The notes below the pieces were generated by a model. It had not been told where the DNA came from. It was given only the letters and a program-made list of their open reading frames with translations, and did no database searches. Of a DNA stretch of 64,000 nucleotides, positions 2,129-52,016 are shown piece after piece (the first letter of the stretch is position 1; each line of letters opens with the position of its first letter). The stretch covers positions 4,096,001 through 4,160,000 of the forward strand of contig OY776510.1 in NCBI GenBank assembly GCA_963675665.1, given 5' to 3'. The stretch comes from Spirochaetia bacterium. GTDB lineage: Bacteria; Spirochaetota; Spirochaetia; UBA9216. The position numbers were made by a program, and so were the translations under genes.

Positions 2129-2243
2129 TCCTCCTAATAAAAAGAATTCCAGCCATGGAAGGCTGGTGAGTTTGTATGAAGTTTTGCATGCAAAGCATGT
2201 AAAACTTCGAAAATATAAAAGAACAAGGATGTTCTTTTATATT
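2129..2243. repeat. Composite three-hairpin intergenic element, copy A
   Basis: CCAGCC-ATGGAA-GGCTGG (2149-2166), GAAGTTTTGCATGC-AAA-GCATGTAAAACTTC (2178-2208), AATATAAAAGAAC-AAGGAT-GTTCTTTTATATT (2212-2243); related copies at 39218-39294 and 51129-51250. Confidence 0.8.
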
Positions 2244-2922
2244 ACGACATCCATTCATCCCGCATGAAAAGCTCAATCGGAAAAAAATTCTTTCTTATTT
2301 CTTCAGGAAGTTCATCCTCAAGCTTTTCAAGCCCTGCATTATATCTCAACGGAATCCCGGTCATTTCAGACACTTCAACCGACAAACTGTAACCCGAGAC
2401 AATATCAGCTGCGGTGGTAGATCTTAACATATGAGTATTATTTATTAAACCTGAAACCTTCAGTCCGCAGGTGTTTTCAAACGATTTTATATACTCAATA
2501 ATTTGTGCCGGACTTCGTGTTTCGGGACGATTTGCGTTTATTACAAGAAAAAAATCATATTCTTCCGGATTGGAAAAATGATCAGAAAATCTTTTAAGTA
2601 CGGCAATTCCGGCCCTGCCGCCGCCGGCATCTATAACAGCATCTGAATCATGACGGTCAAACACAGTATAGACCTCCGCAGATATTGCAGGAACATCTAT
2701 TAATGAAGTATTTACCGTATCTGCAACTACCCTGACACCGTGATCTTCAAGCATTCGTATTCGTTCCCGGCTTCTGAAATAGGGATTAATCACATCTATA
2801 TCTGCAAGAACGGGAGTCCGGCCGGTTTCAGCCAGTTTTACGGCATAATTAACCGCAAACTCCGTTTTTCCGCTTCCGTAATGCCCGGAAATTATTCGGA
2901 CTCTTCTGTCATTTTCTATCAA
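2242..2922 (-). CDS. P-loop ATP-binding protein (SIMIBI/MinD-like) associated with vor operons
   Basis: GHYGSGKTEFAVNYA Walker A, DIDVINPYFRSRE motif; TTG start. Confidence 0.85.
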   Translation of the reverse strand: MIENDRRVRIISGHYGSGKTEFAVNYAVKLAETGRTPVLADIDVINPYFRSRERIRMLEDHGVRVVADTVNTSLIDVPAISAEVYTVFDRHDSDAVIDAGGGRAGIAVLKRFSDHFSNPEEYDFFLVINANRPETRSPAQIIEYIKSFENTCGLKVSGLINNTHMLRSTTAADIVSGYSLSVEVSEMTGIPLRYNAGLEKLEDELPEEIRKNFFPIELFMRDEWMS

Positions 2923-8332: not shown

Positions 8333-9040
8333 TCAGATGACCGTCACTGCCGGAATCTCCGAATTCAGGTATTTCATCTGCTTATCTATCCAGGCGTCGT
8401 CCTTTTTTCCCGAATTCACAGCATGAAGACTGTCGGCGTAACATACAGCTCCGGCAAGATCATGCGTCACATGAATAACGGGGATATCCCGCTCATAACT
8501 TATCCTTCGAATAAGTTGTTGCAGAATAAACCGGTTTTCCGGATCAAGCGCTGAAAAAGGCTCGTCAAGCAGCAACATATCCGGCTGCATTGCAAGTACC
8601 CGGCATACTGCACAGCGCTGTCTCTCTCCGCCGGATATTCTTGCCGGTTTCTCGGCAGCCAGATGCAGAATCCCGCATAATTCCAGAAGTTCCTGTGGTG
8701 AAGGTCCGCCGGCATGAGCATATCTTATATTTTCCAGAACCGTCATATGGGGAAAAAGACTGTAATCCTGATTTAACAGTCCGGTCTTGCGATGCTGAGG
8801 TTTCAGTACAATTCTTTTTGATGTATCGGTCAGGACCTTGTTTCCAAACACAATATAAGCTGAATCGGGAACAGAGAAACCGGCAATACATTTGAGTATT
8901 GTTGTTTTTCCCGATCCGGAAGGGCCGGCTATGACAGCGATTTCACCTGACTTAACACTCATCTGAAATTCAAGCTCAAAGTGTCTGAGTCTTTTTCTTA
9001 AACTGACAACAAAACGACCCGGCTCTGCGTCTGTGAACAT
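8333..9040 (-). CDS. modC: Molybdate ABC transporter ATP-binding protein
   Basis: GPSGSGKT, ISGGERQR, LLDEPFSALD, VTHD; upstream of modA/modB. Confidence 0.88.
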   Translation of the reverse strand: MFTDAEPGRFVVSLRKRLRHFELEFQMSVKSGEIAVIAGPSGSGKTTILKCIAGFSVPDSAYIVFGNKVLTDTSKRIVLKPQHRKTGLLNQDYSLFPHMTVLENIRYAHAGGPSPQELLELCGILHLAAEKPARISGGERQRCAVCRVLAMQPDMLLLDEPFSALDPENRFILQQLIRRISYERDIPVIHVTHDLAGAVCYADSLHAVNSGKKDDAWIDKQMKYLNSEIPAVTVI

Positions 9041-13497: not shown

Positions 13498-14373
13498 CTA
13501 CTCTACTGTAATATTCAGTCTCCCGGTTTTACCGCTTGCTATAGTTACGGAACCTTCTTCATCAACGCTTGAGTCGATGTAGGTTCCGTCTGCATCAAAC
13601 ACGGCCGAAACAAGATCATAAGCGCCCGCTGCAAGAAACGGAAGGACATAAGATCCGTCAGTAACAATTGCACTGCTGACAGCATTCAGAAACATCGGAT
13701 CTGTACTTAATTCTGAAGTTGAATAATCTCCGTCTTGATATGCATAAACTAAAACAGTGTCTGTTCCCGAATAAGTTACATCACCTGCTATCCTTCCCGC
13801 TTCTCCGTCCGCAATAACTCTCACAGTAGGCTGAAGGTTGTAATCTCCGTTTGTATACCTGATTGATTTTCTTACGTCAAAATCAGCAGTTACAGCTACA
13901 GTATCGTTAACAGGAACATCAAATGCACCCGTAGCCTTGAACCCTGAAGTGCTGCCGCTCGGAATAAAAAGCGGATATTCACTGTCGTCCGCCAAAATGA
14001 CATAACATCCCGGATTTACAGGCGAGCCGCTGGTTTCAGGAGCATCAACCTTGAAACGCATCTGGGTAACCTTTCCTGCCGGGAATTCAAACTGCCCGAG
14101 CATATCCGTAACCCCGTTGGTTAATGCAAGAAGGTCGAATTCTTTCGGACCGTCGAAATCTTCAACCACAACCCATTCTTCCGATTCATCCATATAACTC
14201 ATATGAAATGATATTTCTGTAACCGTTATCACTACCGATTTGACATCTGTATCATCGATCGGCGCATCAGTTATTTTTAAAGTAACGCTTCCGGTGTCGC
14301 CGCCGCATCCTGCTGCAAAAAAAGCAATAAAAAGTATCAGTAAAATTATCAATATTTTTTCCGGTTTCTTCAT
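13498..14373 (-). CDS. DUF4382-like lipoprotein
   Basis: Lipobox AAGC, LKITDAP, FDLLALTNG, PSGSTSG, DFDVRKS; start refined to MKKPEK after AAGGAA. Confidence 0.8.
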   Translation of the reverse strand: MKKPEKILIILLILFIAFFAAGCGGDTGSVTLKITDAPIDDTDVKSVVITVTEISFHMSYMDESEEWVVVEDFDGPKEFDLLALTNGVTDMLGQFEFPAGKVTQMRFKVDAPETSGSPVNPGCYVILADDSEYPLFIPSGSTSGFKATGAFDVPVNDTVAVTADFDVRKSIRYTNGDYNLQPTVRVIADGEAGRIAGDVTYSGTDTVLVYAYQDGDYSTSELSTDPMFLNAVSSAIVTDGSYVLPFLAAGAYDLVSAVFDADGTYIDSSVDEEGSVTIASGKTGRLNITVE

Positions 14374-14470
14374 CAAATATTCCTTATAAATAGGGTCATG
14401 TTTTATTATAACACATGGACGACTGAAGTTCATATTCGAAATCCGGAGAATTCAATATTTTTAAATAACA

Positions 14471-14502
14471 GCCGTCCGGAGGCTTTTTATAATCCGGACG
14501 GC
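14471..14502 (-). terminator. Hairpin terminator after the hsp20 pair
   Basis: GCCGTCCGGA / TCCGGACGGC 10-bp inverted repeat with T-rich tail on minus strand. Confidence 0.65.
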
Positions 14503-14514
14503 ATTCCCAAACAC

Positions 14515-14874
14515 TTATCCTGCTTTTATTTCAATCTTTCTGGGTTTGACTGATTCTTTAATGCCCAAAACAAGTGTTACAACTCCATTCTTTATTGATG
14601 CATCGATATTTGTTCTGTCTATCGTATCATCCAGGGCAAACTCATGGTAATAATTCCCGGTACGTATTTCCCTGAGAATATATTTACCGTTATATTCCTG
14701 TTCCGTTCTCTTTCCGCTGATTATAAGCAGATCTTCATCAACCTTAATATCAAGGTTTTTGTTCGTTACCCCGGGCATTTCAAGTCTCAGAACAACCTTG
14801 TCGGCATCATGATAAATATCACAGCAGGATTTATAAATTTTCGCCTCCGGTTCACGGTTCTTCTTATCGTTCAT
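14515..14874 (-). CDS. Hsp20/alpha-crystallin family small heat shock protein
   Basis: EMPGV, LIISGKR, ASIKNGVVTL, PRKIEI; SD AGGAGG. Confidence 0.93.
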   Translation of the reverse strand: MNDKKNREPEAKIYKSCCDIYHDADKVVLRLEMPGVTNKNLDIKVDEDLLIISGKRTEQEYNGKYILREIRTGNYYHEFALDDTIDRTNIDASIKNGVVTLVLGIKESVKPRKIEIKAG

Positions 14875-14883
14875 ACGTTCCTC

Positions 14884-15342
14884 CTAATGCACCTTTACGC
14901 TAATCTGCTTCGTTTTTGCTTCATCCCTTTTGGGCAATACAAGCTGAAGGATTCCTTCCTTAAGCTCAGCAGTAATTTTTTCAGCATCAATCGTAGCGGG
15001 AAGAGGCAGTGTACGTTGAAAGGAACCCGACCATGATTCCCTGCGGTAATACTTGCCGCCGTCCAGGGTCCGATCTTCCTTCTTGTTTCCCTTAACCGTC
15101 AGCACATTCGATGCAATACTTACATCGATGTCGCCCTGCTCCAGGCCGGGAAGTTCACACAGGATTCTGAACTCGTGATCACCTTCAATGATATCTACCG
15201 ACGGAGAAACACTGCGATCGAACAGACCGGTAGATGCCGGATAACGATCATTGTTAAAAAGATCATTGATCTCATTTTGAAGACTCTTGAATTCAGCCCA
15301 TGGATCATAGCTTTCATCTTTTTTCCACCTGGTAATTGCCAT
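14884..15342 (-). CDS. Hsp20/alpha-crystallin family small heat shock protein
   Basis: PSVDIIE, ELPGL, GSFQRTLPLP, AELKEGILQL; SD AGGAGG. Confidence 0.95.
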   Translation of the reverse strand: MAITRWKKDESYDPWAEFKSLQNEINDLFNNDRYPASTGLFDRSVSPSVDIIEGDHEFRILCELPGLEQGDIDVSIASNVLTVKGNKKEDRTLDGGKYYRRESWSGSFQRTLPLPATIDAEKITAELKEGILQLVLPKRDEAKTKQISVKVH

Positions 15343-15624: not shown

Positions 15625-16590
15625 TTATGCAGCCTGACTTTCCTCTTTGAACGTTTTGGTAGAATAGAAGAAAACAGCCGTTATCAGGATCAGGCCTTTC
15701 AGAAGCATCTGGATATAAGGACTGACATCCAGAATATTCATCATATTGCTGAAGATGGCCAGAATCAGGACTCCTCCCACGGCGCCTGCGATATTTCCCT
15801 CGCCGCCCGATAGTGAAACCCCGCCGATGACGACCGCGGTTATCGTATCAAGTTCATAGCCCTTGCCTACAAGCGGGCCTCCGCCGCCCATTCGTCCCGC
15901 CAGAAATACCGATGCAAGCCCGGTCAGCAGCCCTCCCAACAGGTAAGCGGACAGTTTTACCCTGTCGACCGCAATGCCTGTGATTGCCGACACCCACTCA
16001 TTTGCCCCTACAGCATAAAGGTGGCGGCCGAACCTCGACCGGTTCATCAGAATAAGCGCAAGCACGAATATGACCGCAAAATAGAGAAAACAAACCGGGA
16101 TGCCGCCCAGGGAGCCTTCGGCTATAAAACGAAAACTTTTCGGTATTCCTCCGATTGTTTTTTTTGTATAAATGAATATTCCGCCCTGTATTACGGACAT
16201 TGTTGCAAGAGTAGCCATAAACGGAGCTATCTTCAGTTTGACGACTAGCAGACCGTTAACAAGGCCGATAAGCAGTCCCAGTGCCGCAATTATCAGCATT
16301 ACCGGAAGAACCCCGATTTGCGGAAAATCGCGAAACAAGCCTCCTGCTATGGACGTAAGAAATGATACGGCGGCGCCGACGGACATATCAATTCCGCCTG
16401 AAATTATTACCACCGCCTGTCCAAGCGAAGCAAGACCGATTCCGACCGGCTGTATAAGAAATACATTCTTTAAATTACGGGCCCTGATAAACATAGGGTT
16501 GGCTAATATGCTTAAAACGATTATTGCGGCTAACAGGATCCAGACAAATATGCCCGGATCAGTTATTTTAAACTTCTTCTTCATCTTCAC
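15625..16590 (-). CDS. Monosaccharide ABC transporter permease (RbsC-like)
   Basis: GGIDMSVG, PFMATL, FGRHLYAVGAN, AVVIGGVSLSGG. Confidence 0.95.
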   Translation of the reverse strand: MKMKKKFKITDPGIFVWILLAAIIVLSILANPMFIRARNLKNVFLIQPVGIGLASLGQAVVIISGGIDMSVGAAVSFLTSIAGGLFRDFPQIGVLPVMLIIAALGLLIGLVNGLLVVKLKIAPFMATLATMSVIQGGIFIYTKKTIGGIPKSFRFIAEGSLGGIPVCFLYFAVIFVLALILMNRSRFGRHLYAVGANEWVSAITGIAVDRVKLSAYLLGGLLTGLASVFLAGRMGGGGPLVGKGYELDTITAVVIGGVSLSGGEGNIAGAVGGVLILAIFSNMMNILDVSPYIQMLLKGLILITAVFFYSTKTFKEESQAA

Positions 16591-38030: not shown

Positions 38031-39210
38031 CGAATTTCGAACATGATACTTCGACAGCGTTTTCCATCAGCCTGGCGAAATCATATGTTACAATTTTCCT
38101 GGAAATTGCAGCGGTGATTCCTTTTTCTATCAGACGGGATGCCTCGGTCCAGCCCATGTATTCAAGCATCATCCGCCCCGACAGGATTATAGAACTGGGA
38201 TTCACCTTGTCGAGACCTGCATATTTAGGCGCGGTTCCGTGAGTGGCTTCGAAAATTGCCGTTCCGCTTGTGTAATTAATATTAGCACCCGGGGCAATCC
38301 CGATACCGCCGACCTGAGCAGCCAGAGCGTCTGATATATAGTCACCGTTCAAATTCATTGTAGCTACTACATCATATTCGGCAGGTCTGGTCAAAATCTG
38401 CTGCAGAAATGCGTCGGCTATAACATCTTTTATCAAAATTTTACCTTCAGGCACTTTTCCGTTGCAGTCTTCCCAGCTGACGACCTGGTCTGCAAATTCA
38501 CGTTTGGCAAGAGCGTATCCCCATTCGCGAAAAGCACCCTCGGTATACTTCATGATATTGCCCTTATGAACAAGGGTCACCGACTTTCTGTCGTTGGCAA
38601 CAGCGTATTCAATAGCCGCACGCACAAGACGTTCAGTGCCGCTCAGACTGATTGGTTTAATGCCTATTCCGGAATCAGGTTTTACTTCCCAGCCCATGGT
38701 CTCTTTCAGGAATTTTATCAGTTCTGCCGTCTTGTCTTTACCGGCAGCAGTTTCGTAGCCGGCGTAAACGTCTTCGGTATTCTCTCTGAAAACCACCATG
38801 TCGATTAGATCCGGATTTATAACAGGACTCGGGATTCCCGGGTAATGCTTTACCGGACGCAGACAGACATAAAGATCAAGCCTCTGTCTCAGCGCAACAT
38901 TAAGACTGCGGATACCGCCCCCGATTGGTGTTGTCAGCGGCCCCTTGATTCCGACAAGGTATTCCGTAAAAGCTTCCTCGGTTTCTCCCGGCAGCCAGCT
39001 CCCGGTTTTATCAAAGGCTTTCTGCCCTGCCAGAACTTCCATCCATTCTATCTTTTTATCGCTTCCGTAAGCTGTTTTTACTGCTGCATCCATGACGCGC
39101 ACTGCCGCGGCCCAGATATCAGGACCGATTCCGTCCCCTTCGATATACGGAATAACCGGATCCGAAGGCACCTGCAGCACACCGTTGTTCATGGTTATTT
39201 TTGTTCCCAT
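38002..39210 (-). CDS. icd: NADP-dependent isocitrate dehydrogenase
   Basis: [57 protein letters not shown]. Confidence 0.98.
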
Positions 39211-39217
39211 CAAATAA

Positions 39218-39294
39218 CTCCTATAAAAAATTCCAGCCGTGGAAGGCTGTTCGGGAAGTAATGATAAAATATCATGTATTATATTTTATCATTA
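39218..39294. repeat. Composite hairpin element, copy B (upstream of icd)
   Basis: CAGCC-GTGGAA-GGCTG (39234-39249) in a ~35-nt block nearly identical to copy A; TAATGATAAAATAT / ATATTTTATCATTA palindrome (39259-39294). Confidence 0.75.
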
Positions 39295-51114: not shown

Positions 51115-51128
51115 CTTTATTGGAGGAT

Positions 51129-51250
51129 TGATAAAAAGTCAAAAAGTATGCAGTACTTTACATAACTTTTTATCATTTTGAAATTTCCAAACTTTGTTTG
51201 AAAACTTTATCACGCCGACCACCATCCATGGTGGAAGGTTTTACAGGAGG
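51129..51250. repeat. Composite three-hairpin element, copy C (upstream of xth)
   Basis: TGATAAAAAGT / ACTTTTTATCA (51129-51175), CAAAC-TTT-GTTTG core (51188-51200), CCACC-ATCCAT-GGTGG (51219-51234), SD AGGAGG 51245-51250. Confidence 0.75.
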
Positions 51251-51254
51251 GATT

Positions 51255-52016
51255 TTGAAAACTTTTATATCATGGAATGTAAACGGCATCAGGGCAGCTG
51301 AAAAAAAGGGATTGTTCAACTGGATAGCCGAAAAAAATGCCGATTTCGTCTGTCTTCAGGAGACAAAAGCCCAAACGGAGCAGCTTGACGAAACATTTAC
51401 AGCCCCTGAAGGCTATAAATCATGGTTCGCGTCAGCCGAAAAAAAAGGATACAGCGGGGTTGTCACTTACGCAAAGGAAACGCCTCTTTCAGCAGCGACT
51501 CTGAATATAGATGAATTCGATGCTGAAGGGCGAAGCATAATACTTGAGTACCCTGAATATAAACTGATTAACTGTTACTTTCCGAACAGTCAGGAAGAGG
51601 GGAAACGTCTCGATTACAAAATAAGATTCTGTAACGCCGTCATGGACTACTGCGACAAAACCGTTTCGGAAGGGAAAAACATCATCCTTTGCGGAGATTA
51701 CAATGTTGCGCATAAGCCCATAGACCTGGCAAACCCCACACGCAACGAAAAGAATCCCGGTTATCTTCCGGAAGAACGCGCCTGGATGGACAAATTTACA
51801 GGAGCCGGTTATATCGATACATTCAGGAAGTTCTGTCCCGACCCCGACCGCTACAGCTGGTGGTCGTACCGGTTCAAGGCGCGTGATAAAAATGTCGGCT
51901 GGCGTATCGATTATTTCTGCGTAAATCCCGGCATAGAAGATAAACTTGAAAGCGCGGATATACTCGACCAGGTTATGGGCTCGGATCACTGCCCCGTCGA
52001 ACTGGTGCTGAAGTAG
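51255..52016 (+). CDS. xth: Exodeoxyribonuclease III
   Basis: SWNVNGIRA, LQETK, GYSGV, YFPN, GDYNVAH, WWSYR, GWRIDY, SDHCP; TTG start after AGGAGG. Confidence 0.96.
   Translation: MKTFISWNVNGIRAAEKKGLFNWIAEKNADFVCLQETKAQTEQLDETFTAPEGYKSWFASAEKKGYSGVVTYAKETPLSAATLNIDEFDAEGRSIILEYPEYKLINCYFPNSQEEGKRLDYKIRFCNAVMDYCDKTVSEGKNIILCGDYNVAHKPIDLANPTRNEKNPGYLPEERAWMDKFTGAGYIDTFRKFCPDPDRYSWWSYRFKARDKNVGWRIDYFCVNPGIEDKLESADILDQVMGSDHCPVELVLK

Follow-up and report, generated by a model that had tools for sequence, protein, structure and literature searches.

The window, by which we mean the whole 64,000-nucleotide stretch analysed here, contains at positions 2129-2243 an interval between a P-loop gene and a gene for a 71-aa ferredoxin-type subunit, which is followed by 2-oxoacid:ferredoxin oxidoreductase-like genes. 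The three stable hairpins that a sequence-only reading had placed in this interval are borne out, with the letters as it quoted them. The sense strand of this copy (copy A) is the minus strand of the window. In that direction, the first hairpin (hp1, 2212-2243) is an AT-rich perfect palindrome, AATATAAAAGAAC / loop ATCCTT / GTTCTTTTATATT, which overlaps the stop codon of the P-loop gene (2242-2244). Its 5' arm constitutes the left end of the element and is homologous to the left end of an IS110-family insertion sequence (IS). The second hairpin (hp2, 2178-2208) is a C-TTT-G hairpin, GAAGTTTTACATGC-TTT-GCATGCAAAACTTC, with one A-C mismatch, and the third (hp3, 2149-2166) consists of a GC stem, CCAGCC / TTCCAT / GGCTGG. 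The right-end tail AATTCTTTTTATT (2136-2148; tail and Shine-Dalgarno (SD) sequence together 2130-2148) leads into the SD of the ferredoxin-subunit gene, AGGAGG at 2130-2135, ahead of the ATG at 2123-2125. Judged by its letters, hp3 together with the U-rich tail is terminator-like on the sense strand.

The two further copies that had been proposed as related are truncated or variant relatives of copy A. Copy B (39217..39293, minus strand) lies 5' of icd and lacks hp2. Its hp1 (39260-39293, AATGATAAAATAT...) is the left-end hairpin of the family (AATGATAAAAT...), its hp3 (39234-39249) carries the loop TTCCAC, and the tail and the SD AGGAG (39218-39222) precede the icd ATG at 39207-39209. A profile search (nhmmer) matches only hp3 and the tail of this copy, with an E-value of 0.34. 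Copy C (51121..51251, plus strand) lies 5' of xth and begins with a left GGAGG (51121-51125). It has a different hp1 (51129-51173), of which the arm GATAAAAAGTC equals the IS110 left end, followed by hp2 (51179-51207), hp3 (51218-51233, loop ATCCAT), the tail, and the SD AGGAGG (51245-51250), with the TTG start of xth at 51255. This copy is a significant member of the family, as the profile match spans hp2, hp3 and the tail (E 8.7e-8). Against shuffled sequences, the folding z-scores of the sense and antisense strands are -7.3 and -6.4 for copy A, -3.7 and -3.5 for copy B, and -2.8 and -4.3 for copy C. All four antisense loops (C-AAGGAT-G, C-ATGGAA-G, C-GTGGAA-G and C-ATGGAT-G) are as claimed, and the inner stem of hp2 differs in a compensatory manner between copies A and C. 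The accompanying claim that the A-C mismatches become G-U pairs on the other strand holds for these two copies, while across the genome it amounts to a weak trend.

On the strand antisense to the genes, copy A matches the Rfam family TD-2 (RF03162) over its full length (2149..2248, plus strand; 50.1 bits against a gathering score of 48.7). By this match the element family is one already described, TD-2; a match to an existing Rfam family is what the sequence-only reading had named as refuting novelty. The covariance model finds no TD-2 match at copies B and C at E<=10. TD-1 (RF03155) has no match at copy A at E<=10 and none over threshold in the genome, where its best score is 28.6 bits against 64.5. 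Both motifs were described in 2007 by Weinberg et al.; the part of that paper which deals with them places them in Treponema denticola only, with 28 representatives of TD-1 and 36 of TD-2, and notes covariation together with pair-breaking mutations (PMC1950547). There, TD-1 is rated as probably RNA, in a 5' regulatory configuration, and TD-2 as lying outside such a configuration and possibly being a non-coding RNA (PMC1950547). The element described here resembles TD-2 in its three hairpins, in their order and in the GGA of the loops, and copy A and 17 others exceed the threshold. It differs in that almost all copies lie antisense to an SD or start region and are flanked by AGGAG and IS110-type ends, and in its host, which belongs to a different family of the class than Treponema denticola. 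With TD-1 it shares the 5' regulatory configuration and a consensus ending in ...AAAAAGUUUUUAUAGGA, which corresponds to the right end plus SD found here (3' end ...GUUUUUAUAGGA), whereas the internal hairpins of TD-1 are unlike those of the element.

The covariance model yields 46 TD-2 matches in the genome, 18 of them over the cut-off, and a profile built from 25 copies yields 76 non-overlapping matches at E<1e-3. Some form tandem arrays, for example five units at C1:1652331-1652894. On the sense strand the layout is [AGGAGG]-hp1-hp2-hp3-AAGTTTTTAT-AGGAG-spacer-start, with hp3 10-13 nt from the SD and an SD-to-start spacing of most often 5-7 nt. Among the 65 matches that keep their 3' end, 51 are followed within 30 nt by a gene start on the same strand (50 counted, plus copy A, which was added by hand as its 71-aa gene falls below the ORF floor). 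Five abut an IS, four are internal units of tandem arrays, two have a gene start at 39-41 nt, and three have no gene start. Random intergenic positions give 9.8% in place of 51/65 (P about 6e-39). Seen from the TD-2 strand, the start codon that these 51 copies immediately precede is encoded on the opposite strand, in contrast to the original placement of TD-2 outside the 5' regulatory configuration. In six other genomes, the sister genus included, 20 loci were compared; two are without a match, and at most of the remaining 18 a sense copy leads into an SD and an open frame. Orientation is thus far from random; taken alone, this is no proof of regulation. The genes downstream of the copies are unrelated to each other.

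Two additional patterns were observed in the census. Weak TD-2 clusters (20-26 bits) occur at C1:2137222-2137537 and C1:4667889-4690645, some of them overlapping at steps of about 75 nt, and may represent hairpin repeat arrays of another kind, unconnected with the main family. In a younger subfamily, hp2 contains one or two small palindromes (AAACTGCAACGCAGTTT-like) nested within it (L010:2393-2551; C1:738785-738950; C1:4930025-4930173; C1:1454621-1454708), which points to a second palindromic unit of very small size, inserted into the element or duplicated inside it.

When the loci are compared with those of related genomes, the copies are seen to be insertions. At the site of copy A, three congeners have an empty allele in which the P-loop and ferredoxin genes abut (...GAGTTAGGAGGAACTATGG) and the SD is kept; congener G002, with other upstream sequence, and congener G005, whose contig begins inside the gene, are uninformative at this site. 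Locus C1:4968478 is empty in all five congeners, C1:2525924 is filled in G004 and empty in three congeners, and C1:742050 is filled in G001, empty in three and occupied by other sequence in G002. Empty alleles contain one AGGAG(G), and filled alleles read AGGAGG-[AATGAT...TTTTTAT]-AGGAG(G), as in the pair of empty CCTTT-AGGAGG-CATGTATGG and filled TCTTT-AGGAGG-[element]-AGGAGG-AAATAATGG. Copy A is without the left AGGAGG: the junction on that side corresponds to the predicted product with GGAGGA removed, from which we infer a secondary 6-bp loss; the left GGAG is kept in only 33 of 53 copies. A separate arrangement is seen in G002, where a different AT-rich palindrome, CTTTTTATCGG...CCGATAAAAAG, stands directly before the SD of the ferredoxin-subunit gene (L004, G002:C69) and no P-loop gene adjoins.

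Presence and absence also differ between close strains, within the parts of locus L140 that are covered by contigs. The contigs of runs X4 and X7, which are about 1.8-2% diverged, join position 8644 of this locus to 10168. The 1523 nt that they skip are precisely the IS (1391 nt) and its adjoining repeat (about 132 nt), and 8-9 letters are common to both sides of the joint; the copy at 16403-16511 is without cover and uninformative in this comparison. At a different place in the same locus (13857-15173, corresponding to C1:4933857-4935173), a contig of run X3 that is otherwise identical to the genome skips 1317 nt over which sequencing depth is raised. The segment probably represents a further mobile element of multiple copies, in whose presence near-identical strains differ.

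The IS itself was reached through sequence common to the downstream side of five repeat copies. It is 1.39 kb long and present in 15 copies that are 99.6-100% identical, one at C1:893411-894803 of this genome (G000), outside the window, and 14 in further places. Its protein of 370 aa contains DEDD_Tnp_IS110 (PF01548) and Transposase_20 (PF02371) domains. All 15 copies occupy SD sites that precede a start codon, in the orientation of the downstream gene, with a left junction of WWWW-AGGAG-G-AATGATAAAAAGTC... and a right junction of ...TTGACTTTTTAT-AGGAG-spacer-ATG. Joining of the right and left ends of the IS would create TTGACT-17 nt-TAAAAA, a promoter-like junction.

Both ends of the repeat resemble those of the IS. 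The 15-mer GGAGGAATGATAAAA occurs 34 times in the genome against 0.016 expected, namely at 15 IS left ends, at 16 repeat left ends (15 classed as such, and one tandem unit classed as 'other' that we read as a repeat end) and at three places elsewhere. In some repeat copies, similarity to the IS left end extends over 28-31 nt (93-97% identity), in certain cases through the hp1 loop (GATAAAAAGTCTTCCATGA against GATAAAAAGTCTTCATGA), and repeat copies of G002 match IS positions 1-31, likewise at 93-97%. The right end of the repeat is (A/C)TTTTTATAGGAG, and the element is about 120 bp long. A repeat copy directly adjoins five of the 15 IS copies (P about 9e-7), and the other ten occupy SD sites without a profile-called repeat, two of whose flanks we read as hp3-like remnants. 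A composite of repeat and IS that moves as one unit was considered and rejected, as in two pairs the IS are nearly identical and the repeats only about 90% alike. Most repeat copies have a best paralogue at 73-87% identity. Since the IS copies are near-identical and the repeats diverged, the IS is recent here and most repeats are old.

Homologues of the IS with 52-79% protein identity are found in other Spirochaetia, Syntrophales, Desulfobacterales and other metagenome-assembled genomes, where both ends and the SD location are kept. At 80 such loci in other taxa, the profile search detected no repeat copy beside the IS homologue. Within the genus, the repeat-bearing congeners G001-G004 yielded no intact IS of this clade, and G005 contains a 106-nt relic of the IS left end at 89% identity.

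Folding of the IS leader gives two hairpin-loop units, both conserved. Across homologues, the three letters ahead of GGAG in the first loop follow those at the left junction: they agree in 8 of 10 copies with ACA, 8 of 9 with AAA and 5 of 6 with TAA, along with single CAA and AGA cases, and in a few other homologues the agreement extends to two of three letters. In the present genome, the first loop reads TTA, which by our reading four of the 15 junctions match exactly, the others having ATA (nine), AAA (one) and TAA (one). The sequence of the second loop, ATAGGAGAATGG, does not vary and fits the joined ends TATAGGAG-GAATGA. An Rfam scan of the leader returned no family at E<=1. Such loop-target behaviour is what the relevant sections of two papers describe for bridge RNAs (PMC11208160, PMC11208158), and with two loops, the first covarying with the target, the leader appears to behave as expected of a bridge RNA. 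The DEDD and Tnp domains, the two-loop RNA and the loop-target covariation together assign the IS to the IS110/bridge-RNA elements on sequence-based evidence.

We consider it probable that, in this genus, the element is a MITE-like passenger of this SD-targeting IS110. Both of its ends are like those of an IS110-family IS of the same genome, it contains no transposase, and it shares with the IS the target, the junction architecture and polymorphism in presence and absence. A copy has the form [target-left]-AGGAG-G-AATGATAAAA... hp1-hp2-hp3 ...TTTTTAT-AGGAG-[spacer]-start codon, which is the junction architecture of the IS. A circularised repeat copy would present the donor junction of the IS, and we postulate that the IS110 recombinase and its bridge RNA would recognise the joined ends of the repeat, which are identical to the IS donor site. 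Recombination into an NNN-GGAG target would then leave an AGGAG core on both sides, and the right end of the element would rebuild the SD of the downstream gene. Mobilisation would in this case be provided by IS110 in trans. Insertion at NNN-GGAG would account for the fixed sense orientation, the distance of 10-13 nt between hp3 and the SD, the tandem arrays and the differences in presence and absence. The place just upstream of a ribosome-binding site (RBS) would follow from target choice, and the host genes would tolerate the element because their SD is rebuilt. Once inserted, the element may affect gene expression, through the terminator-like hp3 or as a hairpin in the 5' region of the mRNA. 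Several findings count against the passenger model: the IS is younger than most repeats, copy A needs a secondary loss on its left side, the two repeat-plus-IS pairs did not move as one unit, no repeat was seen beside the IS homologues of other taxa, and in most other genomes with the repeat the IS was not found.

Among the three alternatives put forward from the sequence, a REP/MITE-like element that donates an RBS comes closest to this interpretation, as copies are inserted at SD sites and the right end rebuilds the SD. The transposase partner proposed with it, of the HUH/RAYT type, is wrong: the genome has 0 matches to the Y1 transposase (PF01797), and the ends of the element fit an IS110-family element. 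A precedent for an IS110-associated MITE exists in MITEPpu9 with ISPpu9 of Pseudomonas putida, which the part of the source that deals with it describes as a small non-autonomous element with IS110-family-like flanks, for which movement by a transposase provided in trans has been proposed (PMC12288879). MITEPpu9 differs in carrying an sRNA gene and inserting into REP sequences, whereas the element here consists of three palindromes and inserts at SD sites. In a full-text literature search, we found no paper on an SD-targeting IS110 or on a link between TD motifs and IS110.

The hairpins could instead constitute an autonomous REP/BIME-like repeat that spreads by another route or is maintained by the host, with IS110 merely preferring a hairpin, T-run and SD, and with the similarity of the IS and repeat ends arising by capture or convergence. 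We regard this as possible but unlikely. REP and BIME sequences, the targets of IS621 or ISPpu10, are likewise dispersed extragenic palindromes, modular and sometimes tandem. Targeting of REP by IS110-family elements appears in the pertinent parts of two sources (PMC12288879, 10.64898/2026.03.19.712850), the second of which presents, in its part on ISPpu10, a GC stem-loop 5' of the target as a determinant of specificity (10.64898/2026.03.19.712850); hp3 before AGGAG resembles such a stem-loop. The greater age of the repeat relative to the IS in this genome also favours an independent repeat. Against it, ten of the 15 IS copies are at SDs without a profile-called repeat, and the left-end identity lies on the side outside the IS target. 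Moreover, this left end is conserved in IS homologues of other phyla that are without the repeat, and the repeat insertions share the AGGAG-flanked junction with the IS insertions. REP and BIME further differ from the present copies in that these carry IS-type ends and the IS junction architecture in a genome without a RAYT/Y1 transposase.

The host range bears on the same question. In a 151-genome sample of the class, TD-2 scores over the cut-off in three genera only. It is present in 3 of 3 sampled genomes of the same genus (and in 5 of 5 in a separate search of congeners), in one of two genomes of the sister genus, and in 4 of 4 genomes of an unrelated second genus (g38; genomes of 2.7-2.8 Mb), with scores up to 95 bits. 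The IS110-type transposase domain is absent from all four complete genomes of that second genus; taken with the congeners of the present genus, where G001-G004 have no intact IS and G005 a relic, repeat and IS do not co-occur across hosts. Nineteen of the 20 best TD-2 copies in the second genus have no SD-adjacent right end; in close resemblance to REP/BIME elements, they follow genes or belong to mixed arrays. Spread or persistence of the hairpin core is therefore possible without such ends, and a core with neither IS-like ends nor any IS110 favours the autonomous repeat. The twentieth copy is a TD-1 match of 132.6 bits with GTTTTTATTGGAG on both flanks, and these flanks, together with the end of the TD-1 consensus, indicate that the IS-type right end also exists in the second genus. 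Copies in this genus (G043; L173, L176, L178, L179) are often followed by partial extra hp1-type hairpins, and a recurring AAAAAGAACCAAAGTTACC...GGTTAC palindrome lies upstream of copies, in modular, BIME-like arrays.

A cis-acting 5'-UTR or intercistronic RNA of the TD-1 kind, whose hairpins modulate termination, mRNA stability or ribosome access and which is kept by selection for that role, is in our view distinctly unlikely. The strict placement of sense copies 10-13 nt before an SD, the terminator-like hp3 with its tail and the rating of TD-1 as a probable RNA in a 5' regulatory configuration, in the part of the 2007 paper on that motif (PMC1950547), speak for such an RNA, as do the double changes that RNAalifold finds in 15 of 26 consensus pairs over 22 copies (one-sided cells being only four). 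Target choice alone, however, explains the placement, the downstream genes are unrelated, and their orthologues in congeners are without the element. The stems argue in the same direction. In hp1 and hp3, 973 pairs comprise 939 Watson-Crick, 3 G-U, 5 A-C and 26 other mismatches; in hp2, 536 pairs from 48 copies, which are partly related and not independent, comprise 514 Watson-Crick, 3 G-U, 11 A-C and 8 others. About 97% of pairs are thus Watson-Crick, and G-U pairs amount to 0.3-0.6% with no clear strand bias, in contrast to the leader RNA of the IS in the same lineage, which contains many G-U pairs. Two related copies differ almost solely by paired changes in their stems. From this we infer that upkeep of the palindromes takes place on the DNA itself, whether one arm templates the other or a DNA hairpin is under selection, in which case the covariation is no evidence of RNA function. 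The balance of G-U and A-C pairs was also tried as an indicator of the functional strand and discarded, the non-Watson-Crick pairs being too few and the copies non-independent.

The passenger model gives no account of the loops, which are invariant NTCCNT on the sense strand. The suggestion that a UCC loop pairs with the adjacent SD as a pseudoknot finds no support, as the loops read NUCCNU with CUCC in only 14 of 98, and complementarity to the SD in most copies does not go beyond 3 nt.

Read as an RNA, the antisense (TD-2) strand would offer C-ANGGAN-G loops for binding of CsrA, two per unit and up to ten in a five-unit array, and could sequester CsrA as a decoy or regulate the SD region in antisense. 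We think this very unlikely, despite a marked strand asymmetry. The motif CANGGANG occurs in the copies 104 times on the antisense and twice on the sense strand, and ACANGGANGU 32 times against 0; the latter occurs 160 times in the whole genome, so that copies making up 0.2% of the genome hold 20% of its occurrences. The SELEX consensus for CsrA, as quoted in one source, conserves ACA, GGA and GU within the loop of a hairpin (PMC7652899). The antisense loops fit the features of this consensus, with the strict 12-mer in 0 copies, and several GGA loops, as in CsrA-sequestering RNAs, are present on the antisense strand only. Further points in favour are a slight antisense excess of G-U pairs, a TATAAA upstream of the first TD-2 hairpin, and a csrA gene in the genome. 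This gene, however, lies beside fliW and a flagellin gene (L009, C1:3851809-3854967), an arrangement of the protein-antagonist (FliW) type, for which the relevant part of a review has no sRNA antagonist on record. There is no conserved -35, the stems are 13-14 bp long against mostly <=4 pairs in the SELEX hairpins, as given in the same source (PMC7652899), and the loops could be inherited from the left end of the IS (GTCTTCATGA). The repeated ANGGAN-loop hairpins on one strand, in arrays of up to five units, are reminiscent of CsrB/RsmZ-type sRNAs, from which the element differs in its much longer stems and its FliW-type CsrA host. A shade less likely again is a combination of both views, in which the TD hairpin module would be a portable pair of high-affinity CsrA sites spread by the SD-targeting, RNA-guided IS110. 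If this were true, copies transcribed in antisense, single or in five-unit arrays, would sequester CsrA or cover the SDs of about 50 genes. An RNA-type CsrA antagonist would thereby be on record for the first time in an organism with a FliW system, delivered by a mobile element.

As Rfam motifs, TD-1 and TD-2 have been of unknown function since the 2007 screen. With the passenger model that we favour, the present analysis offers them a concrete identity in one genus, namely as palindromic passengers of an IS110 recombinase. It also carries a caution for the discovery of RNA motifs, in that abundant compensatory changes without G-U intermediates need not mean a functional RNA. The partner IS clade, represented in several phyla by homologues that share its ends, is notable for a bridge-RNA-like NNN-GGAG loop, for a natural target that would be the RBS itself, and for a right end that rebuilds the site.
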